Positions 21,128 to 48,090 are shown, counted from the first letter of the stretch. The stretch is DNA of 64,000 nt from Minisyncoccota bacterium (GCA_036517535.1 DATDVS010000028.1:295-64294), one strand, 5' to 3'. The notes: generated by a model not told the origin, from the sequence alone. Numbers and translations: made by a program.

Positions 21128-22930
21128 ATGGACTCAAATGAAATCCGGCAGAAATTTCTAAAATTTTTCGAGCAAGAGTCTCATGGAGGACACAAAATAC
21201 TCCCTTCTTCTTCACTGGTGCCGGAAAATGATCCTTCCGTACTTTTTACTTCTGCTGGCATGCAGCAGTTCAAGCCGTACTATACTGCTCCGGAAAATGC
21301 AGTAAAAGATTTTGAAAATAGGAATATTGTTACGGTGCAGAAATGTATTCGCACCGGTGACATTGACGAGGTGGGGGATGACACCCATCTGACATTCTTT
21401 GAAATGCTCGGCAATTTTTCCTTTGGCGGATACGGCAGGCGCGAAGCTATCACTTATGCGCATGAATTCATCACTAAAGAATTGGGACTCGAGATTTCTT
21501 ACGTGACTTTTTATAAAGGCGAGGGTGTAGTTGATCGAGACGAGGAGTCCAAAGACATCTGGGCGCTACTCGGCGTCAAAGACATCCGCGCCGAAGGCGC
21601 GGATGTCTTCTGGGGGCCGACCGGGGACTCGGGGCCTTGCGGGCCAACGACAGAAATATATTGTAAGAATGCCAACGGCGACGATGTGGAAATTTGGAAT
21701 ATAGTTTTCAACGAATATTTTTGCAACGGGTCCCGTGAACAGCTCGACCGTGGCGAAGCAAAATTAAAAAAGCTTGAGACACTAGGCGTAGATACGGGAA
21801 TGGGTTTCGAGAGATTACTCGCTACTGTACAAAAGAAGAAAAGTGTTTACGAGACGGATGTATTCTCTTTACTCATGGGGAATATTAAAGAACGGTCTCC
21901 AAATTTCAATGATAGAAATGCACGGGTAGTGGTAGATCATTTACGCGGCGCTATGTTTATAATGTTTGACGGTGTTACACCTTCAAACACGGGTCGAGGC
22001 TATATACTTCGCCGCTTGCTACGCAGAGCCTTCACTAGAGCATCTCTAATAGAATTGCAAAATGACTTTTACGAAGAACTTATAGGTCTTATATCAAAAA
22101 TTTATTCTGTAACCTATCCGGAAATACAGGGAAAATTAGATCAAATCTACTCAGTTATATCGGAAGAACAAAAAGCATTTGAAAAACCGCTGGATGGAAT
22201 TGAAACCTACCGCCTTGATTTAGAGGCAGCTAGGCTAGGTGTCAATAAAAAAATGGGCGATGAGTTTATTTTGAAAGATAAAAATACCGCATCAGGAAGA
22301 TATATTTACACCAGTTTTGAAACCTTCGGAAATCCTATTGACCTTAGTATCGCTGCTGCCAAACAATTAGGATACGAAGTAGATGAGGCCGCGATAGAAC
22401 AGGCCAAAAAAGAGCATCAAGAAAAATCTCGCACTGCTTCTGCCGGTATGTTTAAAGGCGGATTAGCCAATTACGATCCGAAAACGATCAAACTTCACAC
22501 CGCACACCATTTACTCTTGGCTGGTCTTCAAGCGATTTTAGGTAAAAGCGTAAAACAAAAAGGCAGCAATATAAATGAAGAGAGGTTGCGCATTGATTTT
22601 CTTTTTGACAGGAAAATGACCGATGAGGAAAGGAAAAAAGTGGAAGATTGGGTAAATAATAAAATAAAACAGGAATTAGAGGTGACAAAGAGAGAATTAC
22701 CGCTTCATTTGGCTGAAAAAATAGGCGCCGAAATGGAATTTGGCGCTAAATATCCCGAAACAGTATCAGTTTATTTTATTGGTCCCGGTAACGCTCCGTA
22801 CGAGGCTATATCCAAGGAATTCTGTGGGGGGCCGCATGCGTCCAACACCCGTGAACTCGGGGTGTTTAAGATTCAGAAAGAAGAAGCAGTAGCGCAAGGT
22901 ATTAGACGCATCAAGGCTTTACTTACATAA
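21128..22930 (+). CDS. alaS: alanine--tRNA ligase, short form
   Basis: Start taken at Met 55 of ORF 20966-22930 (MDSNEIRQKFLKFFE). Contains FTSAGMQQFKPYY, WGPTGDSGPCGPTTEIY, the editing-site HTAHHLL and CGGPHASNT. About 600 aa, with no C-Ala domain. Confidence 0.9.
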   Translation: MDSNEIRQKFLKFFEQESHGGHKILPSSSLVPENDPSVLFTSAGMQQFKPYYTAPENAVKDFENRNIVTVQKCIRTGDIDEVGDDTHLTFFEMLGNFSFGGYGRREAITYAHEFITKELGLEISYVTFYKGEGVVDRDEESKDIWALLGVKDIRAEGADVFWGPTGDSGPCGPTTEIYCKNANGDDVEIWNIVFNEYFCNGSREQLDRGEAKLKKLETLGVDTGMGFERLLATVQKKKSVYETDVFSLLMGNIKERSPNFNDRNARVVVDHLRGAMFIMFDGVTPSNTGRGYILRRLLRRAFTRASLIELQNDFYEELIGLISKIYSVTYPEIQGKLDQIYSVISEEQKAFEKPLDGIETYRLDLEAARLGVNKKMGDEFILKDKNTASGRYIYTSFETFGNPIDLSIAAAKQLGYEVDEAAIEQAKKEHQEKSRTASAGMFKGGLANYDPKTIKLHTAHHLLLAGLQAILGKSVKQKGSNINEERLRIDFLFDRKMTDEERKKVEDWVNNKIKQELEVTKRELPLHLAEKIGAEMEFGAKYPETVSVYFIGPGNAPYEAISKEFCGGPHASNTRELGVFKIQKEEAVAQGIRRIKALLT

Positions 22931-27921: not shown

Positions 27922-27931
27922 CAGAGTGAAA

Positions 27932-27956
27932 AGTAGAAAGTTATAAAGTTATAAAG
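27932..27956. repeat. intergenic AGTAGAAAGTTATAAAGT motif block
   Basis: AGTAGAAAGTTATAAAGTTATAAAG, between rpsM and rpsK. Confidence 0.7.
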
Positions 27957-27994
27957 AAAATACAAATACTTTAAAAACTTTATGAACTAAATTT

Positions 27995-28450
27995 ATGGTA
28001 AAATCAAAAATTACAACCGAAGAGAAAGTGGTCCCGACCGAAGTCGGGATCCCGACAGAGGTCGGGAAAGAAAAAGAAGCTGGCCCCAAAATTCCGAAAA
28101 AGAAAATTACTTCCGGCGTTGTCCACGTTGAGGCCACTTTCAACAACACAAAAGTTCTTTTCTCCGACAAGGCAGGCAACACGCTCTTCTGGTCCACAGC
28201 CGGAGCACTTGGTTTTCGCGGGGCGAAAAAAGGTACGCCGTTTGCGGCCTCGAAAGTGGGGGATATCATCGGCGGCAAGGCTTCCGCGCTCGGAGTAAAG
28301 GATTCGGATGTGGTCGTCTTAGGCGTGGGTTCAGGCCGCGAGCCGGCTATCCGGGCATTTATGGCACACGGCATAGAGATCACTTCGATCAAGGATGCTA
28401 CACCGGTACCGCACAACGGGCCGAAGGCGAAGAAGCCAAGACGAGTGTAA
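27995..28450 (+). CDS. rpsK: 30S ribosomal protein S11 with an N-terminal extension
   Basis: 151 aa with an S11 core (GVVHVEATFNNTKVLFSD...). Confidence 0.95.
   Translation: MVKSKITTEEKVVPTEVGIPTEVGKEKEAGPKIPKKKITSGVVHVEATFNNTKVLFSDKAGNTLFWSTAGALGFRGAKKGTPFAASKVGDIIGGKASALGVKDSDVVVLGVGSGREPAIRAFMAHGIEITSIKDATPVPHNGPKAKKPRRV
28032..28067. repeat. in-frame double-hairpin element, family B, in the rpsK 5' region
   Basis: TCCCGAC-CGAA-GTCGGGA followed directly by TCCCGAC-AGAG-GTCGGGA. Encodes PTEVGIPTEVG. Confidence 0.75.
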
Positions 28451-28477
28451 AGTAGAAAGTTATAAAGTTCATAAAGT
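28451..28477. repeat. intergenic AGTAGAAAGTTATAAAGT motif block
   Basis: AGTAGAAAGTTATAAAGTTCATAAAGT, immediately after the rpsK stop. Confidence 0.7.
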
Positions 28478-28486
28478 AAAAACAAA

Positions 28487-29089
28487 ATGCTTTCAAAACC
28501 AAAATTTAAAATTTGCCGAAGATTAGGATCAGGGGTCTATGACAAATGTCAGACCACCAAGTTTTCGACTTCCAGTAAAGGCGGCATGGCCTCTGGCAAG
28601 CGCCCAAAGGCTCCGAGCGAATACGGAGCCCAGCTTATCGAGAAGCAGAAAATCCGATTTTCATACGGTATCAGCGAGCGACAGCTTTCCAATTACGTGA
28701 AGAAAGCCTCACATATAAAGGGCGCGGGTACGGCGGAGAAATTTTATGAAGAGCTTGAATCCCGTCTCGATAACGCCGTTTACCGGATGGGCCTCGCTTC
28801 CAGCCGCCGCGGAGCTCGGCAGATGGTTTCCCACGGCCACTTCACAGTAAACGACCATAAAGTCACCATTCCATCCTATGAGCTCAAAGTCGGGGACATC
28901 ATCAAGATCCGCGAAGGGTCCAAGAGCAAGAAACTTTTCGACAATTTGGGGGAGCGGCTGAAAGATTACAATCCTCCCGCATGGCTGCGCTTCGATGCCG
29001 GCCGGATGGAAGGCAAAATGGAGGATAAGCCGAAAAACATCGAAACCTTCCTGGACCTGAACGCCGTGCTCGAATTTTATAGCCGTTAA
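28487..29089 (+). CDS. rpsD: 30S ribosomal protein S4
   Basis: 200 aa with an S4 domain (RLDNAVYRMGLASSRRGARQMVSHGHFTVN). Confidence 0.95.
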   Translation: MLSKPKFKICRRLGSGVYDKCQTTKFSTSSKGGMASGKRPKAPSEYGAQLIEKQKIRFSYGISERQLSNYVKKASHIKGAGTAEKFYEELESRLDNAVYRMGLASSRRGARQMVSHGHFTVNDHKVTIPSYELKVGDIIKIREGSKSKKLFDNLGERLKDYNPPAWLRFDAGRMEGKMEDKPKNIETFLDLNAVLEFYSR

Positions 29090-29090
29090 T

Positions 29091-29126
29091 TTTATAACTT
29101 TATAAACATTATTAACTTTATAACTT
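29091..29126. repeat. intergenic motif block, reverse orientation (ACTTTATAAC)
   Basis: TTTATAACTTTATAAAC...AACTTTATAACTT, between rpsD and rpoA. Confidence 0.7.
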
Positions 29127-29135
29127 AAATAAATT

Positions 29136-30119
29136 ATGCCCGAATATAAAATCATCATGCCTTCCAAGCCTCGCATCGTGCTAGAGGAAGGGAACAAAGG
29201 AGTATTTGAAATAGACGGCCTTTACCCCGGGTACGGCCATACTCTCGGCAACAGCCTCCGCCGAATTATCCTGTCATCCTTGCCGGGCGCCAGCATCACC
29301 TCTATCAAGATAGACGGCATTTCCCACGAGTTCTCCACTATGGAAGGTATAAAGGAAGACGTGATTGTGATAATCCTCAATTTAAAAAAGGTGCGCTTTA
29401 AAATGCTCTCTGATGAACCGCAGACAGTCACCCTTTCCGTCAAGGGCCCGAAAGAAGTTCTGGCATCGGAGATCAAGACTGGCGGCCAGGTAGAGATCCT
29501 AAACGGCGACCAGCATATAGTGGAAGTCACCGGCAAGGTCAATTTAAATATCGAAATGAATATTGAGAAGGGCCTGGGTTTTATTCCCAAGGAGATGCAC
29601 CAGAAGGAGAAAGTCGACATCGGCACTATCGCGGTCGACGCCATCTTCACCCCTATCCGCCGGGTCTCTTACGAAGTGGAGAACATGCGGGTCGGCGACA
29701 AGACCAACCACAACCGCCTACGCATTTCGATCGAAACCGACGGCACGCTCTCTCCCCGCGAAGCGCTCTCGCAATCTATCGAAATAATGATCAATCAGCT
29801 GAAAGCGATAATCGACTTCAAGGAGCCCGAGGAAGAGGTTCGACCAGAGTCGGACTCCGACACTGGGTCGGAGAAAAAGGCGGAAGATAAAGACATCAAG
29901 AGGGCCGATGATTTTACCGATGTGCTGAAGACCCGTACCGATAGCCTCGACCTTTCCACCCGGACCTTGAACGCTCTGACCGCGGCCAATATCCGAACCT
30001 TGGGCGGTCTGGCCCGCAAGAAAAGGGAAGATCTGCTCGAAGTAGAGGGCATCGGCGAGAAGGGAATTTCCGAGATCAAGAAAGTGCTCGGCAAGTTCGG
30101 ACTTAATCTTAAAGAATAA
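29136..30119 (+). CDS. rpoA: DNA-directed RNA polymerase subunit alpha
   Basis: 327 aa. Alpha NTD plus a C-terminal HhH domain (LDLSTRTLNALTAANIRTLGGL). Confidence 0.95.
   Translation: MPEYKIIMPSKPRIVLEEGNKGVFEIDGLYPGYGHTLGNSLRRIILSSLPGASITSIKIDGISHEFSTMEGIKEDVIVIILNLKKVRFKMLSDEPQTVTLSVKGPKEVLASEIKTGGQVEILNGDQHIVEVTGKVNLNIEMNIEKGLGFIPKEMHQKEKVDIGTIAVDAIFTPIRRVSYEVENMRVGDKTNHNRLRISIETDGTLSPREALSQSIEIMINQLKAIIDFKEPEEEVRPESDSDTGSEKKAEDKDIKRADDFTDVLKTRTDSLDLSTRTLNALTAANIRTLGGLARKKREDLLEVEGIGEKGISEIKKVLGKFGLNLKE
29838..29873. repeat. in-frame double-hairpin element, family B, in the rpoA NTD-CTD linker
   Basis: GTTCGAC-CAGA-GTCGGAC then (C)TCCGAC-ACTGG-GTCGGA(G). Encodes VRPESDSDTGSE. Confidence 0.75.
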
Positions 30120-30130
30120 CTTTATAACTT
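30118..30130. repeat. intergenic motif, reverse orientation
   Basis: AACTTTATAACTT, overlapping the rpoA stop and 2 nt before the rplQ ATG. Confidence 0.6.
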
Positions 30131-30132
30131 AA

Positions 30133-30489
30133 ATGCGCCACCACAATACAAAAAGAAAATTCGGCAGAACAAAAAATCAACGCAACGCGCTGATGAATTC
30201 CCTAGCGCTCAATTTGATCGTGCGTGAGAAGATCCAGACGACCGAACCCAAGGCTAAAGAACTCCGCCCTTTTATCGAAAAACTCGTGACAACTGCCAAG
30301 AAAAATAATGTCGCTACTCGTAAACTTATTACCGCCAGGCTTGTAAACAGAAGGAAAGAGGTTAAAAAGCTTTTTGACGTGATCGCTCCGAAATACGCCG
30401 ATCGTTCCGGAGGGTATACGCGAGTTTTGAAACTGGGTGCGCGAAAGTCGGATGGTGCTAAAATGGCCATAATCGAGTTTATAAAGTAG
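30133..30489 (+). CDS. rplQ: 50S ribosomal protein L17
   Basis: 118 aa with a typical L17 sequence (MRHHNTKRKFGRTKNQRNALM...). Confidence 0.95.
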   Translation: MRHHNTKRKFGRTKNQRNALMNSLALNLIVREKIQTTEPKAKELRPFIEKLVTTAKKNNVATRKLITARLVNRRKEVKKLFDVIAPKYADRSGGYTRVLKLGARKSDGAKMAIIEFIK

Positions 30490-30509
30490 AAAGTTGAAAG
30501 TTATAAAGT
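30485..30509. repeat. intergenic AGTAGAAAGTT...ATAAAGT motif block
   Basis: AGTAGAAAGTTGAAAGTTATAAAGT, spanning the rplQ stop up to the rplM ATG. Confidence 0.7.
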
Positions 30510-30510
30510 A

Positions 30511-30891
30511 ATGAAAAAATCACAGATTAAAAGAGAAGAGACCAGAGAAACTAAAATGGTGGATGCATCCGGCCGGACCTTGGGGCGGGTGGCAAGCGAG
30601 GTCGCGACGAAGCTCATGGGCAAGACCAGCGCTTCTTTTGAGCGCCACACCTACTCCGGATTCCCAGTCAAGGTGGTCAATGCTTCGAAGATCCGAATAA
30701 CGCCGAAGAAGCTCGCGGAGATCTATCATACCCGATACTCCGGTATCCCAGGAGGCTTGAGGATCATCCACGGTACGGAAACGAAGAAAAAGGAGGGCAT
30801 GAGTGAGCTGGTTCGCTTGGCGACGTACCAGATGCTCCCATCCAACAAACTGCGCCGAGAAATGATGAAGAATTTAACAGTAATAGAATAA
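30511..30891 (+). CDS. rplM: 50S ribosomal protein L13
   Basis: 126 aa with an L13-like sequence (VDASGRTLGRVASEVATKLMGK...). Confidence 0.9.
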   Translation: MKKSQIKREETRETKMVDASGRTLGRVASEVATKLMGKTSASFERHTYSGFPVKVVNASKIRITPKKLAEIYHTRYSGIPGGLRIIHGTETKKKEGMSELVRLATYQMLPSNKLRREMMKNLTVIE

Positions 30892-30910
30892 TCTGCGAAG
30901 AATAATACCA

Positions 30911-31318
30911 ATGACTGAAACAAAAACAAAAAAATATACTGAAGCAGTAGGGCGAAGGAAAACTTCAACCGCCCGGGTGCGCATACATGAAGCTGCCAAA
31001 GTGTCATTCATAGTGAACGGCAAGGATGCTCGCGAATATTTCCAAACAGAAGAATCCCGCCGGCTCGTCTTGGGACCCACCGTAAATTTAGGAACTACCA
31101 CCAAGTGGCACATTGAGGCTAAAGTTTCCGGCGGCGGCCCTCATTCGCAAGCGGAGGCCGTGCGTCACGGGCTCGCTCGTGCGCTCTCCGCGAACAACAT
31201 TGAATTCCGGCCAAAAATGAAATCCTTGGGTTACCTCAGGCGCGACCCTCGCGCCAAAGAGCGCCGCAAATTCGGACTCAAAAAAGCCCGCAAGGCACCG
31301 CAATGGAGTAAAAGATAA
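30911..31318 (+). CDS. rpsI: 30S ribosomal protein S9
   Basis: 135 aa with an S9 C-terminus (RDPRAKERRKFGLKKARKAPQWSKR). Confidence 0.95.
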   Translation: MTETKTKKYTEAVGRRKTSTARVRIHEAAKVSFIVNGKDAREYFQTEESRRLVLGPTVNLGTTTKWHIEAKVSGGGPHSQAEAVRHGLARALSANNIEFRPKMKSLGYLRRDPRAKERRKFGLKKARKAPQWSKR

Positions 31319-31425
31319 CTGCTTATCTTTTACTCCGGTTGCGTGCAAGAGCAAATTTCCGTTGCGAGCTTGCGAGCCGGAAATAGGAGGGGATACGTTC
31401 ACTGACCTAGACCAGACTTGGAAGA

Positions 31426-31451
31426 AAGAGCCCTTGAAAAAGGGGCTTTTT
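31426..31451 (+). terminator. rho-independent terminator after the rplM-rpsI unit
   Basis: AAGAGCCCT-TGAAAAA-GGGGCTTTTT. Confidence 0.6.
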
Positions 31452-31452
31452 A

Positions 31453-31461
31453 TGTTAAAAT
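31453..31461 (+). promoter_or_regulatory. extended -10 element (TGtTAAAAT)
   Basis: Lies 6 nt upstream of the grpE ATG at 31468. Confidence 0.45.
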
Positions 31462-31467
31462 CGGATT

Positions 31468-32070
31468 ATGTCTGACGAGGAAGCTAAAAAAGAAGTCCGA
31501 CCAGAGTCGGACCCCGACACGGAGGTCGGGGACGACGTTGTCGAGTTCGAATTCAATGAAGACGGCGAGGAGGACCTAAAAAAGACCTTAAAGAAGCTAC
31601 GGGCTGACCTAAAGGCTGCAAAAGCGGAAAAGGAGGAATACCTGACCGGCTGGCAGAAGGAGCGAGCGGATTTCGCCAATTATAAAAAAGAGGAAGAAAA
31701 TCGAAAGGCAATGTTTTCCGAGGCCGTGCGGGAGCGGATCTTGACCCGCTTTTTAACCGTGCTTGATAGTTTCAACTTGGCTTTTGCGAACAGGGAAGCC
31801 TGGGAGAAGGTGGATCCGAACTGGCGCAAGGGCGTGGAATACATCTATTCGCAGATGAACGATATTTTCAAGGAATATGGTGTTATGCCAGTGGGCGAAG
31901 TAGGGGAGAGTTTTGATCCGAACATTCATCAATCCATAGACATGGTGGCCACAAACAAGAGGGAGCAAGATCACAAAATTGCCGTTGTGGTGCAGAGGGG
32001 CTACAAGCTGGGCGGGCGCATCATCCGCCCGGCACGAGTGAATGTTTGGGAGTATAAGACCTTTCCCTAA
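31468..32070 (+). CDS. grpE: nucleotide exchange factor GrpE
   Basis: 200 aa. Long helix followed by a GrpE C-terminal beta domain (FDPNIHQSI...GYKLGGRIIRPARV). Confidence 0.9.
   Translation: MSDEEAKKEVRPESDPDTEVGDDVVEFEFNEDGEEDLKKTLKKLRADLKAAKAEKEEYLTGWQKERADFANYKKEEENRKAMFSEAVRERILTRFLTVLDSFNLAFANREAWEKVDPNWRKGVEYIYSQMNDIFKEYGVMPVGEVGESFDPNIHQSIDMVATNKREQDHKIAVVVQRGYKLGGRIIRPARVNVWEYKTFP
31495..31531. repeat. in-frame double-hairpin element, family B, in the grpE 5' region
   Basis: GTCCGAC-CAGA-GTCGGAC then (C)CCCGAC-ACGGAG-GTCGGGG. Encodes VRPESDPDTEVG. Near-identical to the rpoA copy. Confidence 0.75.
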
Positions 32071-32119
32071 CCCTCTCCTTGCCAAGGAGAGGGGAAAAGC
32101 AAAGGGGTGAGGTGAATTT
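32058..32119 (+). repeat. hairpin-plus-RBS repeat, copy A
   Basis: GACCTTTCCCTAA-CCCTCTCCTT-GCC-AAGGAGAGGG-GAAAAGCAAAGGGGTGAGGTGAATTT, followed by the ATG at 32120. Confidence 0.8.
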
Positions 32120-33778
32120 ATGAATTCTATCACTAAAATCTGTGCTGATTGCAGACAAGAATTCATAATAGATGAGGGGGATTTAAAGTTATACGAAAAA
32201 ATCGGACTCAAGCTTCCGACTAAATGTTTTGACTGCCGAATGAAGCAGTATTTTATATTTTCTATTTTTGGAAAGTTCCGCAAAGGGGTGTCTGACTTAT
32301 CAGGAGAGAGTTTGATTACTGTGCTGCCAAACAAGCCCAGATTCCCGATTTATCATTCTCATGAGTGGTGGGGTGATAGCTGGGATTCCATGTCCTACGG
32401 CCAAGATTATGATCCTGGGCGCTCATTTTTTGACCAGCTGAAAGAACTTCAAGAGAAAGTGCCTCGCCCGCACCAGATAGGACAAAATAATTTAAATTGT
32501 GATTGGTGTGATGATGCCTGGAACTGTAAAAATTGCTACCTTTCTCGCTCAATGGATAAATGTGAGAATTTGAGCTATGCCTACCGGGCAATTGATAGCA
32601 AGGACTCATTTGACATATTTTATAGCTTTAACCTCCAGAATTCTTATGACTGCTTGTTTTGTCACGACTCTTTCAATCTAAATTTTTCAGAAAATTCTCG
32701 GGATTGTATAGATTCATATTTCCTCTTTGACTGCCGTAACTGTCAGAATTGCTTTATGAGCTGGAATTTAAGGAATAAACATTATTGCATAAGGAATAAA
32801 CAATACACAAAAGAAGAATATGAAAAAGAATTAAATAAAATCAAACTTGACTCGTACGAGAATATAAAAAAATTAAGAACTGAATTTGAAGAAATATTGA
32901 GAAAAGAGGGAGTGCATAGGGAGAATTTCAACATCCGGTCGACTGGTTCCGTGGGGAACTATATGACTGATTGCGATAAATGCGTAAATGTTTTCTCATG
33001 GGAGGAATCACAAAATTGTCGCAACTGTATGCGCGGACTACGCTCGAAAGATTGCATTGATATGGGATTTTCCTGGAACCTGGAACTCTCCGGCAACAAC
33101 GGTGTGGTGGATGGCGGCTATCAGATCAAGCATTCGGGCGGGTCTTCTACTGGCAGATTCTCTGAATATGTGGATTTGTGTAAAGAAGTCGAGTATTGCT
33201 TTGGCTGTATCGGCCTTCGCAAAAAGAAATATTGTATTTTAAATAAAGAATACACGAAAGAAGAATATGAGAAACTAAAAGTACAAATCATAGCTGATAT
33301 GGAGAAGCGAGGAGAGTATGGCGAGTATCTCCCGTATTCGATGGGCACAGGGGATTATAATTTATCAAATGGGATAGTTTATTTCCCCAATATGACCAGA
33401 GAGGAAGTTTTAAGAAATGGTGGATACTGGTCTGACGAGGATTTGTCGCAGACAGACGGCGTTCCGTCTTCAGAATTACCTGATAGTATTTTAGATACCA
33501 CCCCCGAAGTTTCTTCCAAGGCACTTATTTGTCCGGAAAGTCATTATAGATTCAACATTGCTCAGACAGAATACGAATTTCATAAAAGGAAAAATTTTGC
33601 TTTACCACGGATTCACTTCGATAAAAGAATTATGGATAGAATGCGCAAAATGTCCATTATGAAAAACTACCCCTACCAATGTTTTTACTGTAAAGCTGAT
33701 ATAATGGCTTATTATCCGCCGGAATGGGGATACCAGAAGATTGCCTGCGAGGAATGTTATAAGCAGAACATAGCATGA
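32120..33778 (+). CDS. Cys-rich multi-zinc-ribbon protein, family member 1 (most divergent)
   Basis: 552 aa, paralog of members 2-6. Keeps the N-terminal CxxC...CxxC and both YC(I)xNKxYTKEEYEK caps. Several C-terminal module cysteines are replaced. Confidence 0.8.
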   Translation: MNSITKICADCRQEFIIDEGDLKLYEKIGLKLPTKCFDCRMKQYFIFSIFGKFRKGVSDLSGESLITVLPNKPRFPIYHSHEWWGDSWDSMSYGQDYDPGRSFFDQLKELQEKVPRPHQIGQNNLNCDWCDDAWNCKNCYLSRSMDKCENLSYAYRAIDSKDSFDIFYSFNLQNSYDCLFCHDSFNLNFSENSRDCIDSYFLFDCRNCQNCFMSWNLRNKHYCIRNKQYTKEEYEKELNKIKLDSYENIKKLRTEFEEILRKEGVHRENFNIRSTGSVGNYMTDCDKCVNVFSWEESQNCRNCMRGLRSKDCIDMGFSWNLELSGNNGVVDGGYQIKHSGGSSTGRFSEYVDLCKEVEYCFGCIGLRKKKYCILNKEYTKEEYEKLKVQIIADMEKRGEYGEYLPYSMGTGDYNLSNGIVYFPNMTREEVLRNGGYWSDEDLSQTDGVPSSELPDSILDTTPEVSSKALICPESHYRFNIAQTEYEFHKRKNFALPRIHFDKRIMDRMRKMSIMKNYPYQCFYCKADIMAYYPPEWGYQKIACEECYKQNIA

Positions 33779-33838
33779 CCTCTCCCTAGCCCTCTCCTTG
33801 GCAAGGAGAGGGGAAAAGCAAGGGGTGAGGTGAATTTT
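33777..33838 (+). repeat. hairpin-plus-RBS repeat, copy B
   Basis: GACCTCTCCCTAG-CCCTCTCCTT-GGC-AAGGAGAGGG-GAAAAGCAAGGGGTGAGGTGAATTTT, followed by the ATG at 33839. Confidence 0.8.
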
Positions 33839-35536
33839 ATGAATCCACAAACCAAAAATTGTCCGAATTGTAAAAAGGACTTTACTATAGAAAGTGAAGA
33901 TTTTAATTTCTATGAGAAAGTAAAAGTCCCTCCGCCGACTTGGTGCCCGCTGTGCCGCCAGCAAAGGCGCTATGCCTGGCGCAACGAGCGCACGCTGTAC
34001 CGCAGAAATTGCGATCTATGCGGCAAATCGACGGTGACCATTTACTCTCCGAATAAACCACACAAGATGTATTGCCAATCCTGCTGGTGGGGTGACGGCT
34101 GGGATCCGGCTTCTTTCGGAGTTGATTTTGACTTTTCCCGCCCATTTTTTGACCAATTTCATGAACTCCAGCTCCGGGTGCCGCGCATGGCCCTTTTGAG
34201 TAAAAACAGCGTAAATTCTGAATACACCAATCACTCCGGAGACGACAAAAATGTTTATCTTTCCTTCGCGGCCTGGTCGGCGGAAGATGTCCTATACAGC
34301 ACCTGGGTTATGAAGTCTCGGGATTGCATGGATTGCAGTTTCATATACGACAAGGGCGAACGCTTGTATGAAGTAATCGACTCCCGCACTTCTTACGAAT
34401 GCCAATACAGTATTTTCCTGAAGGACTGCTCTTCTTGTTATTACTGCTATGATTGCCACGGCTGCAATGAATGCTTTATGTCCTACAATTTACGCAATAA
34501 AAGTTATGTCTGGCGAGGTCAGCAACTAAGCCGGGAAGAATATATGAAAAAGAAGAAAGAGCTTGAGATGACTTCTTTTACAGAACGCCAAGGGCTTTTA
34601 CAAGAGTTCCAAGATACGATAGAGCAAAGTGCCATTCATCGATATGTGGTCTCCGAGCGCAATGTAAACTCTGTCGGCTCTCTTATTTTTGATTGCAAAA
34701 ATGTCAAACAATCCTTTGAGGTGAACGGTGCCGAGGATTGTAAATATATTTACGGGGGCCTGGATATGAAAGATTGCATGGATATATACCATGTCGGCTG
34801 GCATACTACCGAGCTTTGCTATGAACTGCATGGCTGTACACGGGTAGCCAATTGTAAATTCTGCCATCTTTGTTATGACAACAACAGTGTGTCCTACTCT
34901 GACAGTTGCCAGAACAGCCAGAATCTTTTCGGTTGCGTGAGCATTAAAAAAGGCGAATATATGATTTTCAATAAAAAATACAGCAAGGAAGATTACCTGG
35001 CGCTCAAGGAGAAAATTATCGAGCATATGAAGAAAACCGGGGAATACGGGGAATTCTTCCCGCCTGCCATTGCGCCGGTATACTACAACGAAACGCAGGG
35101 TATTCTGTATGATCCATTGACTAAAGAGGAAGTTCTGTCCAAAGGCTGGCATTGGGAGGATAATGTGCCGGGGACAAAAGGCAAAGAAACGATCAGCAAT
35201 AAAGACATCCCGGATAAGATTGAAGATGTGCCCGATACATTCTTGAAAGAAGTTTTTGCCTGCGATGCTTGCTCGAAGAATTACAACATCACCCAAAACG
35301 AGCTTCTGTTTTACCAAAAAGAAAAAATTCCTTTGCCGCGCAAATGCCCGAACTGCAGATACAAAAGGCGTTTTGATCTGCGCCCGCTCCGCAAGCTCTG
35401 GCACAGGGGGTGTATGTGTGACAAATCCGGCCATGACCACGCGGGAATCTGTAAAAATGAATTTGAGACTTCCTACGCTCCGGAGAGGAAAGAGAAAGTC
35501 TACTGCGAGTCCTGCTATAACAAAGAAGTGTATTAA
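33839..35536 (+). CDS. Cys-rich multi-zinc-ribbon protein, family member 2
   Basis: 565 aa from the ATG that follows the shared GGTGAGGTGA RBS; the ORF track begins 9 nt earlier at a GTG. Full complement of N- and C-terminal ribbons. Confidence 0.85.
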   Translation: MNPQTKNCPNCKKDFTIESEDFNFYEKVKVPPPTWCPLCRQQRRYAWRNERTLYRRNCDLCGKSTVTIYSPNKPHKMYCQSCWWGDGWDPASFGVDFDFSRPFFDQFHELQLRVPRMALLSKNSVNSEYTNHSGDDKNVYLSFAAWSAEDVLYSTWVMKSRDCMDCSFIYDKGERLYEVIDSRTSYECQYSIFLKDCSSCYYCYDCHGCNECFMSYNLRNKSYVWRGQQLSREEYMKKKKELEMTSFTERQGLLQEFQDTIEQSAIHRYVVSERNVNSVGSLIFDCKNVKQSFEVNGAEDCKYIYGGLDMKDCMDIYHVGWHTTELCYELHGCTRVANCKFCHLCYDNNSVSYSDSCQNSQNLFGCVSIKKGEYMIFNKKYSKEDYLALKEKIIEHMKKTGEYGEFFPPAIAPVYYNETQGILYDPLTKEEVLSKGWHWEDNVPGTKGKETISNKDIPDKIEDVPDTFLKEVFACDACSKNYNITQNELLFYQKEKIPLPRKCPNCRYKRRFDLRPLRKLWHRGCMCDKSGHDHAGICKNEFETSYAPERKEKVYCESCYNKEVY

Positions 35537-35538
35537 TA

Positions 35539-35599
35539 AGTTATAAAGTAGAAAGTTCATAAAGTTATAAAGTAAATAAAATGAACTCTGAAACTAAAA
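35539..35599 (+). repeat. 61-bp perfect direct repeat, copy 1 (intergenic motif block plus first 6 codons of member 3)
   Basis: Identical to 37326-37386: AGTTATAAAGTAGAAAGTTCATAAAGTTATAAAGTAAATAAAATGAACTCTGAAACTAAAA. Confidence 0.9.
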
Positions 35600-37323
35600 C
35601 ACATTCGAATATCTCAGTGTCTACGACTTGCCAGAATTGTAAAAAAGATTTCACCATCGAGCCAGATGATTTCTCTTTTTACGAGAAAATAAAGGTCCCG
35701 CCACCGACCTTCTGTCCGGAATGCCGAAGGCAGAGACGGCTTGTTTGGCGGAACGAGCGAACGCTCTATAAAAGGAAGTGCGATTTATGCCAGAAAAACG
35801 TCATTGCGATGTACCATGAATCTGTACCATTTCCGGTGTATTGCCGGGAATGCTGGTATGGCGACGGCTGGGATCCAAAATCATACGCCCGGGAGTACAA
35901 CATGAATAAATCGTTTTTCGAACAATATCACGAATTATCTAATGTTGTCCCTAAACTCGCCCTTTGGCAGAGAAACTCCATAAACTCCGATTACTCGAAC
36001 TATGTTGGTGAGTCCAAAAATGTTTATCTCTCGGCTTCGGTGGTAAAAAATTCGGAAAACATTTTTTATTCAAAATCCATAGATGGATGCAGAGATATTG
36101 TAGATTGCTTTAATATTATCAATGGTTCAGAAAGTTTGTATGAAAATGTTGAAGCGCAAGGGAATTATGATTCGCAATATCTCCTGCTTTGCCGAAGTTG
36201 CCTAGATTCTTATTATTCGGTTGATTGTATAAATTGCAGCAATTGTTTTCTATCTCATAATTTACGCAATAAGAAATTTTGTATCCGCAATAAACAATAC
36301 ACCAAAGAAGATTATTTTAAAGAACTGGAAAAATTTAATTTAAAGAGTCGGACTTCGCGTCAAATTTTACTAAAAGAATTTGAAAAAATAAAAAAGCAGG
36401 CCATTTATCGTTTCGGTAACATAACCAAATGCGTGAATGTTACCGGAAATAATTTGTTAAATGTAAAGAATTCAAAAGATTGTTTTGAAATATACGATAC
36501 TGAAAATTCTAAGTATGGCTACAGAGCCTTTTCACTGAAGGATTGTATGGATTTTGATTACGGGGGTTGGTCCGAGCTTCTTTATGAATACACGACAGGC
36601 GCGCTCAATCACTACAATGTTCATTTTACTTATTCTGCTATGGAGTCGGTCAGAAATGCCGACTATACGGAGTGGTGCAGAAATTGTAGCAATATTTTCG
36701 GTTGCATTTCGCTTAACAATGCCAAGTATATGATTTTAAACAAAGTTTATCCGAAAGAAGAATACATGAAATTAAGAGAACAAATTATCAAACAAATGAG
36801 CGCCACTCTTTTTAAGGATAAAAAAGGGAGGGTTTATAAGTATGGTGAATTTTTCCCGATTGAGCTCTCTCCCTGGGCATACAATGAAACCTTGGCGCAG
36901 GAATTTCACCCCACAACGAAACAGAAGGCGGAAGAAAACGGTTATTCATGGCGAGAGCCAAGTAAAAAAAATTTTGAAATCACAACCCCAGCGGATAAAA
37001 TCCCAGACGACATAGATGATGTAGCTGAAGAAATTATGAGCAAAGTGCTGGGCTGCGCTCACTCGGGAAATTGCAATCATCAATGCACTTCCGCTTTCCG
37101 TATCACGGATTATGAATTGAAATTCTACAAGAAACATGATATTCCCTTGCCGGATAAATGCCCAAATTGCAGATACTATGAAAGAGTGGCAGTTATGCCT
37201 GGATTAAAGTTGTACAAAAGGGTTTGCATGAAATGCAAAGTAGTAGAATTTGAAACTGCGTATGCTCCAGACCGGCCAGAAAAGATTTACTGTGAATCTT
37301 GTTATAATAAAGAAATATACTGA
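35581..37323 (+). CDS. Cys-rich multi-zinc-ribbon protein, family member 3
   Basis: 580 aa paralog with intact second N-terminal ribbon (CDLCQK...VYCRECWYGDGWDP). Confidence 0.85.
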   Translation: MNSETKTHSNISVSTTCQNCKKDFTIEPDDFSFYEKIKVPPPTFCPECRRQRRLVWRNERTLYKRKCDLCQKNVIAMYHESVPFPVYCRECWYGDGWDPKSYAREYNMNKSFFEQYHELSNVVPKLALWQRNSINSDYSNYVGESKNVYLSASVVKNSENIFYSKSIDGCRDIVDCFNIINGSESLYENVEAQGNYDSQYLLLCRSCLDSYYSVDCINCSNCFLSHNLRNKKFCIRNKQYTKEDYFKELEKFNLKSRTSRQILLKEFEKIKKQAIYRFGNITKCVNVTGNNLLNVKNSKDCFEIYDTENSKYGYRAFSLKDCMDFDYGGWSELLYEYTTGALNHYNVHFTYSAMESVRNADYTEWCRNCSNIFGCISLNNAKYMILNKVYPKEEYMKLREQIIKQMSATLFKDKKGRVYKYGEFFPIELSPWAYNETLAQEFHPTTKQKAEENGYSWREPSKKNFEITTPADKIPDDIDDVAEEIMSKVLGCAHSGNCNHQCTSAFRITDYELKFYKKHDIPLPDKCPNCRYYERVAVMPGLKLYKRVCMKCKVVEFETAYAPDRPEKIYCESCYNKEIY

Positions 37324-37325
37324 TT

Positions 37326-37386
37326 AGTTATAAAGTAGAAAGTTCATAAAGTTATAAAGTAAATAAAATGAACTCTGAAACTAAAA
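37326..37386 (+). repeat. 61-bp perfect direct repeat, copy 2
   Basis: Identical to 35539-35599. Confidence 0.9.
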
Positions 37387-39059
37387 AATGTGAAAGCTGC
37401 AGTAAAGATTTCGTCATCGAACCAGACGATTTTGGGTTCTATGAGCAGATGAAGGTTCCGCCGCCAGTATGGTGTCCAGACTGTCGGAGACTGCGCCGCA
37501 TGGCTTGGTACGGTTATAGAATTTTATACAAGCGCAAGTGCGATTTTACCGGAGAAAATATAATCACATTTTATCATCCGGATTTGCCTTATAAAGTTTA
37601 CAAGCAGGACGTCTGGTGGAGTGATAAATGGGACCCAAAAAGCTATGGGAGGGAGTATGATTTTTCTCGGCCATTTTTCGAGCAATATAAAGAATTAATG
37701 GATGAAGTGCCCAAAGCATCACTCCACACGGAATATACCACTATGATCAATAGTGAATATTGCAATGCGGCCAGCTTTCAGAAAAACGGGTATCTTTGCT
37801 TTAAACATATTAAAGGCGAAGACGCTGCATATACCAATGTTGTTTTGAATATAACAAATTGTTTAGACGTGGCGTACTCGGTTGATCTAGATCTTTGTTA
37901 TGAAACGGTTGATGTAGGACATTGTTTCCAATCTTTTTTCGTGCAAGATTGTCATACCTCTCAAAATCTTTATTTTTGCCGAGATTTGGTGAATTGTAGT
38001 AATTGTATAGGTTGTACTTCTTTGCGTAATAAAAGTTATTGTATTTTTAATGAGCAGTTCACTAAAGAAGAATATGAAAAGAAAATGAAGGAATTCGATT
38101 TTGGGTCCATGGCAAATTTACAGAAATTCAAAACAAAAGCATACGAGTTTTCTTTAAAATTTCCGCGGCGAGCGTTAAGGGGCGTAAATAATGTAAATAC
38201 TTCCGGTGAATATGTATATAATTCAAAAAATACGCGTGATGTATACTATGTTTCCGATTCCGAGAATGTGCGGTATGCCCAATTGTTTATTAAAGGCGGG
38301 GCTCATAATTGCCATGATTTTACCGCCTTTGGAACGAGCTCAGAGTGGGTGTATGAAGCAACATGGACTGGATACAATACTTCAAATGTGAAATTTAGCG
38401 TCTGGAATTATCGCAACCACGACACCGAATATACTTTTGGCTGCCACGGTTCTGAATACTTATTTGGCTGCGTCGGATTAAACAAGGGTTCCTATTGTAT
38501 TTTCAATAAGCAATACACCAAGGAGGAATATTTCCCTATGGTAGAAAAAATAAAAAAACAAATGGCTGAAATGCCGTTCGTAGACAGGAGGGGACTGAAG
38601 CACGGCTACGGCAGTCAAATCCCCATTGACTTATGCCCTTGGGCTTATAATGAAACTACCGCTTATGAATTTTTCCCGATAACTAAGGCAGAAGCCCTCT
38701 CCAAAGGCTTTACTTGGCGCGATGCAGACGAAAAAGAATATCTGCCTGCTAGTATGCTAGTACCAGATCATATCAAAGACGTGACGGACGAGGTACTGAA
38801 AGCCGTTTTGAAATGCGAGGCTTGCGGCAAAAATTATCAGATTATCCAAAAAGAACTACAATTCTTACGCCGGTCTAATCTGCCTATCCCGCGACATTGC
38901 CCGCTCTGCCGCGACCGTGCCCGCATCAAGCAAATGAATCCGATGGAGATGTATGACCGCAATTGTGATAAATGCAAAGCCAAAATTCAAACTTCTTACG
39001 CCCCGGACCGCCCGGAGATTGTGTATTGCGAAGATTGCTATAAACAGGAAGTGTACTAG
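37368..39059 (+). CDS. Cys-rich multi-zinc-ribbon protein, family member 4
   Basis: 563 aa paralog. Ends ...RPEIVYCEDCYKQEVY. Confidence 0.85.
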   Translation: MNSETKKCESCSKDFVIEPDDFGFYEQMKVPPPVWCPDCRRLRRMAWYGYRILYKRKCDFTGENIITFYHPDLPYKVYKQDVWWSDKWDPKSYGREYDFSRPFFEQYKELMDEVPKASLHTEYTTMINSEYCNAASFQKNGYLCFKHIKGEDAAYTNVVLNITNCLDVAYSVDLDLCYETVDVGHCFQSFFVQDCHTSQNLYFCRDLVNCSNCIGCTSLRNKSYCIFNEQFTKEEYEKKMKEFDFGSMANLQKFKTKAYEFSLKFPRRALRGVNNVNTSGEYVYNSKNTRDVYYVSDSENVRYAQLFIKGGAHNCHDFTAFGTSSEWVYEATWTGYNTSNVKFSVWNYRNHDTEYTFGCHGSEYLFGCVGLNKGSYCIFNKQYTKEEYFPMVEKIKKQMAEMPFVDRRGLKHGYGSQIPIDLCPWAYNETTAYEFFPITKAEALSKGFTWRDADEKEYLPASMLVPDHIKDVTDEVLKAVLKCEACGKNYQIIQKELQFLRRSNLPIPRHCPLCRDRARIKQMNPMEMYDRNCDKCKAKIQTSYAPDRPEIVYCEDCYKQEVY

Positions 39060-39734: not shown

Positions 39735-41642
39735 ATGAGTAAGATAATTGGTATAGATTTGGGGACAACAAACTCGGCAATAGCTGTCATTGAAGGTGGT
39801 GCACCGAAGATTATTGAAAATTCAGAAGGTGCCCGCACCACGCCTTCAGTCGTGGCTGTGGCGAAAAATGGCGACCGCCTGGTGGGCTTGCTCGCCAAGA
39901 GGCAGGCAGTCACTAATCCGGAGAATACTATTTACGGCATCAAGCGCTTCATGGGTCACAATTTTGACGATCCGGAAGTGCAGAAGGATTTAAAGACTGC
40001 ATCTTTCAAGGTGCAAAAAGCAGCGAATGGCGGAGTAGAAGTAAAGATTGGCGATAAATGGATGCGCCCGGAAGAAATTTCCGCGATGATCCTGTCTAAA
40101 ATAAAAGCAGATGTGGAAGCCAAGCTGGGAGAAAAGATTACCGAAGCGGTCATCACCGTGCCGGCATATTTCAACGATGCGCAAAGAAAAGCGACAAAGG
40201 ACGCGGGGCAGATCGCGGGCCTGGATGTAAAGCGAATTATCAACGAGCCGACAGCTGCCGCTTTGGCATACGGATTTAATAAAAAGAAAAATGAAAAGAT
40301 TGTGGTCTACGATTTCGGTGGTGGAACTTTCGATGTGTCCGTGCTCGAGATAGGGGATGATGTCATCGAGGTGAAGTCTACAGATGGCGACAGCCACTTG
40401 GGCGGACGCGATATCGACCAGAAGATCATGAACTGGATCGCCGAGGAATACAAGAAGACTTCCGGGGTGGATGTGCGTTCCGATAAATTGGCCCTCCAGC
40501 GCTTGGATGAGGCGGCTGAGAAAGCCAAAATAGAGCTCTCTACCGCGGTAGAGACAGAGATCAATATTCCATTTATTACCTCTACAGCCGAGGGCCCTCA
40601 GCACCTCCTGCTAAAAATGACCCGCGCTCAATTGGAATCACTGGCAGATGAGTACATTACTCGCTCCATAGACATCGCCAAGCGCGCGATGGCGGCCTCC
40701 GGTTTCAAAATCGAAGATATGCATGAGGTTGTGATGGTGGGCGGACAGACGCGCATGCCGAAGATTGTGGAGGAAGTGAAGAAGTTTTTTGGCAAGACTC
40801 CGAACTTGAGTATTAATCCAGATGAAGTGGTAGCTCTCGGCGCTGCGGTGCAGGCCGGAGTATTGCAGGGGGACGTACGCGACGTATTACTCCTCGACGT
40901 TATCCCGCTTTCGCTCGGTATCGAGACCTTGGGCGGGGTGGCTACTAAATTGATCGAGAGAAACACGACTATCCCTTCTAACAAATCCCAAGTATTCTCT
41001 ACTGCGGCGGACAATCAAACCTCGGTGGAAATTCATATCGTCCAGGGTGAGCGCCCGATGGCCTCCGACAATAAGTCTCTGGGCCGATTTATCCTCGACG
41101 GCATCCCACCATCACCGCGTGGTATGCCCCAGGTGGAAGTGTCCTTCGATGTGGATGCCAATGGGATACTCAACGTGACAGCGAAAGATAAAGCTTCCGG
41201 CAAGACTCAATCCATCAAGATTGAAGCAAGCTCGGGCCTCAAAGAAGATGAAATAAAGAAAATGCAGCAAGATGCGGAAATTCACGCGGAGGAAGATAAA
41301 AAAAAGAAGGATACAGTTGAAGTTAGAAATACTGCTGAAATGATAATTTATACGGCTGAAAAGGGGCTCAAAGACGCGGGTGATAAAGTCCCGGCCGAGG
41401 TGAAGAGCGGAGTGGAAGCGAAAATTTCCGCCCTTAGAGCTCTAAAGGACGGCACGGATGTGGACGCGATCAAAAAAGCAACCGAGGAACTCTCAAACGA
41501 AATGTCGAAAATTGGGGAGGCGATGAGTAAGGCCGGTCCTTCGTCGAGCTCAGGATCTACGACGCCCGAAGAGCAGCCTGCGGAAGTTACAGACGTAGAA
41601 CACGAAGAAAAGCCAAAAGAGAAAGGAGAGGAGGAGAAATAA
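39735..41642 (+). CDS. dnaK: molecular chaperone DnaK (Hsp70)
   Basis: 635 aa. [18 protein letters not shown] and the canonical substrate-binding domain. Confidence 0.97.
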
Positions 41643-46253: not shown

Positions 46254-46287
46254 GTATAACAGATTTGAACGGCCGTCTAAAAGTGTT

Positions 46288-48033: not shown

Positions 48034-48090
48034 CCTCTCCCTAACCCTCTCCTTGGCAAGGAGAGGGGAAAGAAAGGGGTGAGGTGAATT
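48032..48090 (+). repeat. hairpin repeat, copy C (no downstream + strand gene)
   Basis: GACCTCTCCCTAA-CCCTCTCCTT-GGC-AAGGAGAGGG-GAAAGAAAGGGGTGAGGTGAATT. Lies between convergent member 6 and rsmE. Confidence 0.8.

Follow-up and report, generated by a model that had tools for sequence, protein, structure and literature searches.

Why do three core genes of one bacterial DNA stretch each carry, in frame, a pair of adjacent GC-rich hairpins? The stretch comprises 64,000 nucleotides (nt) from a Minisyncoccota bacterium (GCA_036517535.1 DATDVS010000028.1:295-64294) and is called here, as a whole, the window; the genes are rpsK, rpoA and grpE. An earlier note on this DNA had described the hairpin pairs as copies of a single element that might act in translation initiation, mRNA stability or temperature sensing. 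The answer that we consider probable, though well short of settled, is that the three copies are solitary members of a Patescibacteria-specific, GC-rich, four-arm dispersed repeat that behaves as a selfish mobile element, possibly driven by a GIY-YIG nuclease. In its simplest statement, rpsK, rpoA and grpE each carry a tolerated passenger, and the window copies most likely have no regulatory role. The copies, their host genes and one feature of context are as follows.

27995..28450, plus strand: rpsK (ribosomal protein S11), host gene; Pfam PF00411, residues 41-150.
28032..28067, plus strand: double-hairpin element in rpsK, of the subfamily with TCCCGAC/GTCGGGA arms; in frame, codons 13-25, encoding VPTEVGIPTEVG.
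29136..30119, plus strand: rpoA (RNA polymerase alpha subunit), host gene; Pfam PF01000, PF01193 and PF03118.
29838..29873, plus strand: double-hairpin element in rpoA, canonical family, 36 nt, with a degenerate arm 1 (GTTCGAC); in frame in the linker between the N-terminal domain (NTD) and the C-terminal domain (CTD), encoding VRPESDSDTGSE.
31434..31461, plus strand: promoter-like site of grpE (TTGAAA, 16 nt, TG-TAAAAT), a pattern match only, at 10 of 12 consensus positions; context, not part of the element.
31468..32070, plus strand: grpE, host gene; Pfam PF01025, residues 32-193.
31495..31531, plus strand: double-hairpin element in grpE, 37 nt, with a canonical hairpin 1 and a compensated hairpin 2; in frame in the N-terminal tail, encoding VRPESDPDTEVG.

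That three hairpin pairs occupy these positions in frame, as the earlier note had claimed, is confirmed by the sequence and by its translation (VVPTEVGIPTEVGK in rpsK, EVRPESDSDTGSE in rpoA and EVRPESDPDTEVG in grpE). The rpsK copy runs TCCCGAC-CGAA-GTCGGGA and then TCCCGAC-AGAG-GTCGGGA, two perfect stems of 7 base pairs (bp) built from the same arms. Hairpin 1 of rpoA (GTTCGAC-CAGA-GTCGGAC) has seven pairs including one T.G, hairpin 2 is (C)TCCGAC-ACTGG-GTCGGA(G) with 7 bp, and one C is common to the two. The grpE copy consists of GTCCGAC-CAGA-GTCGGAC followed by CCCCGAC-ACGGAG-GTCGGGG, 7 bp each, the second with a 6-nt loop. Across the window the pattern CCGAC-N3-8-GTCGG has five matches, all inside the three copies, against 0.20 expected (none of 100 shuffles reached five), and a 23-nt core common to the rpoA and grpE copies has two matches against none expected; the constituent 7-mers show no enrichment outside the elements. 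By direct count on the family consensus the element is about 65% G+C, compared with 45% in the window. All three copies belong to one family: those of rpoA and grpE lie one and two substitutions, respectively, from the consensus, and the rpsK copy represents a separate subfamily that had been missed. The sites had also been judged tolerant of extra residues, rightly so in that all three fall outside Pfam domains: the rpsK element is N-terminal of the S11 domain, which begins at amino acid (aa) 41, the rpoA element occupies aa 235-246, past the NTD domains, which end at aa 225, and ahead of the CTD, which begins at aa 261, and the grpE element is N-terminal of the GrpE domain, which begins at aa 32.

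As RNA, the window copies fold with energies of -18 to -25 kcal/mol; the rpsK copy has a minimum free energy of -24.8 kcal/mol (z = -4.9), and the grpE copy folds as two tandem hairpins at -22.4 kcal/mol. Because one core is common to all four arms, each copy can alternatively be folded as a single long hairpin in which arm 1 pairs with arm 4. The outer two stem pairs covary, however (GT/AC, CT/AG, TC/GA, CC/GG), and are complementary within the hairpin every time, which favours two local hairpins, as originally drawn, over the long one. This covariation is a direct tally of the outer pairs; a count based on a MAFFT alignment was dropped because the aligner had moved the register of the rpsK-type arms. 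The likeness among the copies resides in their nucleotides, not in the peptide. The loop of hairpin 2 is 4 nt long in rpsK, 5 nt in rpoA and 6 nt in grpE, and this difference places the same 3' arm in different reading frames in rpoA and grpE, where the GTCGG of the last arm is read G TCG G and GTC GG, respectively.

The earlier note suggested searching for further copies, and the pooled set from other Patescibacteria now holds at least 123 that are non-redundant. A scan of genomes, one per species, with a loose pattern gave many chance matches in high-GC organisms and at least 32 canonical copies in low-GC loci, mostly Patescibacteria metagenome-assembled genomes (MAGs), the taxa being Nomurabacteria, Paceibacterota, Saccharibacteria, Colwellbacteria and Doudnabacteria; these copies conform to the consensus far more tightly than did the search pattern. 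A scan of metagenomes with the central 22 nt as query added at least 120 loci. The family consensus is GTCCGACC-NNN-GTCGGAC followed directly by TCCGAC-NNNN(N)-GGTCGGAG, for an element of 35-37 nt. Positions that the metagenome query did not cover (arm 4 and, in arm 1, the two outermost bases) are nonetheless invariant, arm 1 reading GTCCGAC in 113 of 120 copies and arm 4 GTCGGAG in 116 of 120, and among the pooled copies the loops vary freely while the arms stay fixed. The commonest 36-mer occurs at 11 independent sites among the copies listed, in different species and genes. Decayed copies exist as well, about 15% carrying 1-3 substitutions; in a reading of the listed copies, single arm substitutions give an A.C mismatch about nine times and a G.U pair five times, a small sample. 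The element is nearly its own reverse complement, and its orientation is set by three positions. The second subfamily, with TCCCGAC arms, comprises the window rpsK copy and copies in loci L116, L126 and L239. The only features of the flank profiles are a purine at -1 and an A-rich stretch downstream, the TAG that follows about a third of the copies being part of a tRNA D-loop context. There are three copies in the 64 kb of the window and at least four matches in some MAGs. A scan of viral contigs with the 22-nt core returned no match and thus gives no sign of a phage origin, and an Rfam search of the window and 18 related loci found tRNA, rRNA and one group I intron, with no family at the element.

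A CRISPR-like array was considered and rejected, since the copies are solitary or irregular; the sole tandem case is L143, where three overlapping copies lie at 1140-1210. At L097:6486-6560 (the same as L192) the last arm and D-loop sequence are partly duplicated, with CTCAGTTGCGGTCGGAG occurring twice. Both arrangements suggest slippage or template switching at the arms.

Among the copies listed, 41 lie in open reading frames (ORFs) of at least 150 aa and 61 in non-coding DNA. The hosts confirmed by Pfam are GyrB, PolA, SecA, FtsK, NusA, RecA, DnaB and the CCA-adding enzyme, with the element between domains or at their edges. Its position in those other than PolA is:

GyrB: after Toprim and before the C-terminal domain.
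SecA: C-terminal tail.
FtsK: linker (three genomes).
NusA: two sites.
RecA: N-terminal tail.
DnaB: N-terminus.
CCA-adding enzyme: on the antisense strand.

Relative position within ORFs ranges from 0.0 to 0.95, most hosts having the element mid-gene or C-terminally, and copies stand in both orientations and also in non-coding DNA. The canonical strand is the coding strand in 35 of the 41 coding copies listed, and 27 of the 41 use the frame that gives VRPxSDSDxxSE (p ~1e-7 for frame); the family as a whole is seen in six combinations of frame and orientation, with KSDQSRTPTQGRR, LRPQSESDRRVGP and GPTSVGLRLGGRS among the other readings. In coding DNA it forms an open segment of about 12 codons, placed where an essential protein has a linker, a tail or a surface loop, and these open frames imply that it is translated along with its host. 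Copies of 36 and 35 nt number 26 and 9 in coding DNA and 24 and 36 in non-coding DNA (p = 0.0015; copies listed), and this excess of 36-nt copies in genes fits an insertion of about 35 nt that survives once a multiple of three has been restored.

Comparison of related genomes shows that the element is gained and lost at the level of DNA. Orthologues without the segment, another comparison that the earlier note had proposed, were found for the genes of three relatives, for RpoA and for PolA. Synteny around rpoA is kept in these relatives (L116, L117 and L118): in L117 and L118 rpsK, rpoA and grpE all lack the element, whereas in L116 it is missing from rpsK and grpE and the rpoA linker has GTCCCGACCGAAGTCGGGATCCCGACAAAGGTCGGGAAA, identical at 38 of 39 nt to the window rpsK copy. 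Two relatives lack the element throughout 9-kb syntenic stretches. A protein of a 'Candidatus Paceibacterota' MAG matches the window RpoA at 100% identity, which places the window in a Patescibacteria genome. Among the best 120 homologues of this RpoA the window's rpoA copy occurs only in P0001-P0004 (99-100% identical); the orthologues listed at 83-88% identity are without it. P0020 and P0066, the latter encoded in L116, have the rpsK-type peptide VPTEVGIPT.VGK in the linker, and the remaining homologues an ordinary K/E-rich linker of similar length.

Other odd segments were noticed in the RpoA linker of P0024, P0075, P0107 and others (PARNASHSDIGG, PVRNVSRSNTEEG and INSPAGGEKK), and the rpoA linker DNA of L118:4001-4996, CCTGCCCGCAATGCTTCGCATAGCGATATAGGCGGG, is partly self-complementary. 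Other hairpin families may use this same linker.

In PolA the site lies within a conserved motif, ALRKNL-GG-TREEAQ in about 115 of 120 orthologues, of which three carry the element there. The empty site reads CTC GGG GGT ACT and the filled site CTC G[TCCGACC...GGTCGGAG]GCAGTA ACG, for net gains of +36, +36 and +33 nt. The insertion junction, G^G, is like that of the tRNA D-loop cases described below (AGTG^GTAGA).

A different insert of 21 nt, GSHAEGRAG (GGC AGC CAC GCC GAA GGA CGG GCA GGT), stands in L244 (the PolA of P0140) at the same codon as the L021 element, which is the PolA site filled by the element in its closest relatives; either a remnant or another insertion into a hot spot is conceivable.

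Copies in non-coding DNA lead to a candidate driver. Many sit in the D-loop of tRNA-like 5' remnants (...TAGCTCAGTG[element]TAGAGC...), and in at least 25 loci an ORF of about 90 aa with a GIY-YIG domain (PF01541, E = 2.8e-16) begins 7-60 nt 3' of the copy, in the same orientation in 22 of 25. The element is thus physically tied to a GIY-YIG gene in these 'master-like' copies, a link to nuclease and tRNA cassettes that was not visible to the earlier note from the window. The GIY-YIG ORF stops at an intact tRNA gene (Ile, Val, Ala, Thr, Gly or Phe), a few nt short of it or just inside it, an overlap with the start of the tRNA being seen in several loci such as L099, L233 and L126, and a second element sometimes follows the GIY-YIG/tRNA unit. 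In a reciprocal test that started from homologues of the protein, a double hairpin lay 10-15 nt before the ATG in all four loci with DNA, one each of canonical type, rpsK type, CCCCGAC variant and split type; the rpsK-type copy is the one that precedes the GIY-YIG gene of L239. The protein, 92 aa long in the example at L099:4318-4593, consists of the catalytic domain alone; among solved structures its closest relatives, with weak E-values, are UPF0213 proteins and the structure-specific SLX1 nucleases. The GGAG of the last arm lies 8-20 nt before the GIY-YIG start codon.

The possibility that the D-loop copies interrupt functional tRNAs was rejected, for three in silico excisions gave no ARAGORN tRNA across the junction; as Rfam returned only a sub-threshold partial match, the sequences are tRNA remnants and not working tRNAs. 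The cassette order of tRNA remnant with hairpins, GIY-YIG ORF and intact tRNA was noted at L063:3380-4000, L099, L080, L048, L161, L162 and L239-L242. L241 has, at 2396-3061 and next to tRNA-Gly, a gene for a 221-aa Y1_Tnp protein (PF01797), some 600 nt away from a hairpin-GIY-YIG unit and without hairpin copies on its flanks; the loci were not screened systematically for Y1_Tnp.

If the element is indeed a selfish mobile repeat, its spread would depend on hairpin or cruciform DNA: a GIY-YIG nuclease of the structure-specific type would make a break or nick, followed either by break-induced copying or by insertion, strand-specific, into purine^purine junctions. A compensating +/-1 change after insertion would restore the frame, and 36-nt copies would for that reason dominate in genes and 35-nt copies outside them. 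The nuclease of about 90 aa would be the probable driver and the unit of hairpin and nuclease at tRNA genes the autonomous form; the solitary window copies would be its non-autonomous relatives, as repetitive extragenic palindromes (REPs) are to the genes of REP-associated tyrosine transposases (RAYTs). Strand-specific insertion, recombination between purine-rich K/E linker flanks, or selection on the peptide could each produce the orientation bias, and read-through in the hosts would yield peptides such as EEEVRPESDSDTGSEK. A bolder version, which we put forward only tentatively, makes the double hairpin the cis site of an undescribed Patescibacteria mobile system: the SLX1/UPF0213-like GIY-YIG nuclease would take the RAYT role, with autonomous units at tRNA genes and solitary pairs seeded genome-wide, including the 12-residue inserts in core proteins (RpoA, GyrB, PolA, SecA, RecA and DnaB among them) throughout the phylum.

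Several observations weigh against a selfish mobile repeat. The window RpoA linker is no longer than in element-free relatives, which speaks for replacement or compensated insertion and not for simple addition. Neither the filled and empty PolA sites nor the flank profiles show a target-site duplication, and the PolA sites show no clean excision footprint. GyrB orthologues keep the element at the same codon with 36 of 36 nt identical, although synonymous sites are saturated in this comparison (third-position identity 0.30-0.47 over the next 180 nt); one GyrB genome deviates, and solely in loop 2. The arms of the GyrB element contain ten third-codon positions; under neutrality, that all are conserved together would have a probability of ~1e-5 to 1e-4 per pair. 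Decay would be expected of an old insertion that was passive, so that these frozen arms call for constraint or for repeated correction; the constraint could reflect a function for the host, and self-templated correction between four near-identical arms is a possibility. No GIY-YIG gene lies within the 64-kb window, and the link of the nuclease to the three window copies is consequently indirect. The sense-strand bias among the listed coding copies is not obviously explained by selfish insertion alone. Lastly, mobility itself is read from presence and absence, no transposition event having been directly observed.

The GyrB result bears on the main rival, which we regard as unlikely though deserving of serious attention: that the element is a cis-acting RNA signal of the host under selection, whether a site of protein or RNase binding or processing or a stabilising stem-loop, in mRNAs and in tRNA/GIY-YIG transcripts. 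Such a signal would account for arms that are invariant across class-level lineages while loops vary, for the identity of the GyrB element at one site despite saturated flanking synonymous sites, and for an orientation biased towards transcription among both the coding and the GIY-linked copies listed; the GGAG before the GIY-YIG start could in addition mask a ribosome-binding site. It fits poorly with the same genes lacking the element in sister genomes, with its arbitrary position within ORFs, with the existence of antisense and decayed copies and with the lack of an Rfam match in the window and the 18 related loci. Arm substitutions, moreover, produce mostly A.C mismatches and not G.U pairs, in the small sample given above.

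A host signal acting at the level of DNA, be it a competence uptake signal, a priming or recombination signal or a nucleoid-protein site, appears improbable. Identical sequences recur in different species and genes, and, like uptake sequences, the element is tolerated in genes in benign frames, as are the DNA uptake sequence of Neisseria and the uptake signal sequence of Haemophilus. Its orientation bias could also track replication, for the window has a monotonic GC skew, nearly all of its genes on one strand and all three copies in the same orientation. Uptake sequences occur about once per kb, however, as against three copies in 64 kb with no enrichment of the constituent 7-mers elsewhere, and known signals need 8-12 nt, not 35 nt and four arms. 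The gaps in the 9-kb syntenic stretches of two relatives speak against such a signal too, and a tight link to a nuclease gene would be unexpected.

We find still less room for control of translation initiation or mRNA stability in rpsK and grpE, possibly with a thermometer in grpE, and the role that the earlier note had entertained is unsupported. The hairpins are stable (-22 to -25 kcal/mol) and begin close to the start codon, at +37 nt in rpsK and +27 nt in grpE, and a leaderless grpE mRNA, with which such a role was associated, is plausible, given that the promoter-like match, a pattern match only, ends 7 nt 5' of the ATG; any leaderless state would be independent of the element. When the 5' regions are folded as RNA (-25 to +85 in rpsK, -7 to +93 in grpE), however, the element pairs with itself, the AUG stays outside it and the start codons are not sequestered. 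An initiating ribosome reaches roughly to +15 to +19, and the hairpins, which begin 27-37 nt 3' of the start codons, lie beyond this footprint. Positions are arbitrary, mid-gene or C-terminal in most hosts, close relatives have grpE and rpsK without the element, and on direct reading the grpE element bears no resemblance to the heat-shock operator known as the controlling inverted repeat of chaperone expression (CIRCE), with consensus TTAGCACTC-N9-GAGTGCTAA.

A low-complexity peptide (an acidic linker motif), whether conserved or arisen by convergence, with the hairpins as by-product, would agree with the hydrophilic VRPxSDSDxxSE of 27 of the 41 coding copies listed and with the two synonymous loop differences between the rpsK hairpins, but has next to nothing left to it, being ruled out as an origin by the roughly half of the copies that are non-coding and by the same nucleotides read in other frames and on the other strand, and contradicted also by synonymous third positions frozen in the arms and an arm in different frames in rpoA and grpE; the earlier note's view of a discrete element at the nucleotide level is borne out.

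The element belongs to no described family among the Rickettsia palindromic elements (RPEs), the REPs and their doublets (REPINs), and the mitochondrial double-hairpin elements (DHEs) and GC clusters, and the literature searched, of which coverage is incomplete, contained no description of it. RPEs are palindromic repeats of a reduced-genome bacterium that lie in frame in many unrelated, often essential genes and are translated at tolerated sites (PMC10969869). The present element resembles them in being in frame in unrelated genes (three window hosts and another 38 ORF copies listed), with translation deduced from the open frames. It differs in that RPEs are ~100-150 bp long and alpha-proteobacterial, whereas the element has 35-37 nt, four short arms and Patescibacteria hosts, a distinction of length and host; roughly half of the copies of the element, moreover, stand in non-coding DNA, and a GIY-YIG gene goes with it.

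The mitochondrial elements, namely the DHEs of Allomyces, the GC42 clusters of yeast and the repetitive hairpin elements of sponges, are short GC-rich hairpins of AT-rich compact genomes, patchily distributed among close relatives and located in spacers, beside tRNAs, in variable rRNA regions and occasionally in protein genes, with stems conserved below the synonymous rate and loops free to vary (PMC4478555; PMC2800124). The yeast GC42 clusters combine conserved stems and free loops with exchange between species, and their stem conservation has been interpreted as a constraint for the element's own activity (PMC4478555). The element described here likewise consists of adjacent GC-rich hairpins with fixed stems and free loops, in an AT-richer compact genome, and varies between relatives. 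Its host is bacterial and not organellar, and the yeast clusters are flanked by AG/ACT repeats, whereas the PolA site shows no duplication. The mitochondrial hairpin elements are not known to have an attached nuclease gene.

REPs and REPINs are palindromes of 20-40 nt, often in doublets, with many non-autonomous copies and a few that flank the gene of a presumed mobilising enzyme (PMC3733652). Size and doublet form are shared with the element. REPs are extragenic, however, whereas 41 of the 123 copies listed lie in ORFs of at least 150 aa; they carry a GTAG or CGTC tag, whereas the flanks of the element have no conserved tag; and they go with a Y1 HUH transposase, whereas the gene beside the element encodes a GIY-YIG nuclease. 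A free-standing GIY-YIG homing endonuclease gene among tRNA genes is SegB of phage T4 (PMC2330249). The likeness is that in related loci, though not in the window, a GIY-YIG gene lies beside a tRNA, abutting the intact gene and leaving a duplicated tRNA 5' remnant; the difference is that the cassette protein, of ~90 aa, has nothing beyond its catalytic domain and lacks the DNA-binding domain that Seg and I-TevI enzymes possess. Seg genes are not known to have an associated hairpin repeat. From miniature inverted-repeat transposable elements the element is set apart by the lack of duplication at its sites, which was tested directly, and by being a palindrome in its entirety; no parent insertion sequence was seen, though none was searched for directly. 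RNA thermometers differ in that the rpsK and grpE elements leave the start codons outside their folds.

Patescibacteria have some of the smallest and most streamlined of bacterial genomes and are usually called poor in repeats and mobile DNA. The analysis shows in them a phylum-wide 36-nt repeat that puts one and the same 12-residue segment into RNA polymerase, gyrase, DNA polymerase I, SecA, RecA, DnaB, NusA, FtsK, S11 and GrpE, and that would give some of the odd inserts in conserved proteins called specific to the candidate phyla radiation a simple origin in DNA. It would be a new case of selfish DNA shaping proteins, alongside the Rickettsia RPEs and mitochondrial GC clusters, and a practical marker for binning and strain tracking. 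If the link to GIY-YIG is causal, it would represent a new way to mobilise hairpin repeats; their mode of movement has been a puzzle from the time of their discovery in mitochondria, and a 90-aa enzyme with a 36-nt substrate makes a tractable system.

Other repeats were seen along the way. At 19150-19194 of the window a perfect 45-nt palindrome with a 20-bp stem and the sub-hairpins CGGGTGT-TGG-ACACCCG and CGGGTGT-CCA-ACACCCG is part of the reading frame of mnmA (18773-19876), where it encodes NFGCWTPAIRVSNTRK; it has the look of another double-hairpin insert, unrelated to the first, and no copy of it occurs in any fetched locus. Perfect palindromes were also found at 21579-21609 in alaS (14-bp stem) and at 52227-52254 in an arginase-family gene (12-bp stem). 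Those of ClpB and of the arginase-family gene were treated as unrelated, being ordinary conserved coding sequence with no copies in the fetched loci. In the Anaerolineales MAG CAZLBQ01 (G+C 0.67; L009, L053, L078 and L081) there is a separate double-hairpin repeat in five copies, TGTAGCGCCGAC-N4-GTCGGC.GCCGAC-N4-GTCGGCGCTAC, which by its GTAG tag looks like a classical REP/REPIN family with a coincidentally similar CCGAC/GTCGG core.

A 40-nt repeat of the window, GACCTCTCCCTA.CCCTCTCCTTG.CAAGGAGAGGGGAAA, with a 10-bp stem, is found at 32058-32097, 33777-33816 and 48032-48071, at the stop codons of grpE and two Cys-rich paralogues, as a terminator-like repeat family. An AT-rich intergenic motif, AAAGTAGAAAGTTATAAAGTT, at 27925-27967, 28444-28486, 30485-30527, 35544-35600 and 37331-37387, stands directly 5' of rpsK, rpsD, rplM and the Cys-rich paralogues and could serve this genome as a promoter or as a signal for translation. 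These paralogues are six tandem Cys-rich ORFs of 550-590 aa at 32120-39059 and 44493-48033, with weak treble-clef zinc-finger matches, situated between grpE and dnaK (39735-41642) and after a TraG/VirD4-like gene (42467-44491). The window's only tRNA (Tyr, GTA; 7797-7880, minus strand) overlaps the start of a predicted plus-strand ORF at 7795-8643 that begins with TTG, and the start of this ORF has probably been called too far upstream.

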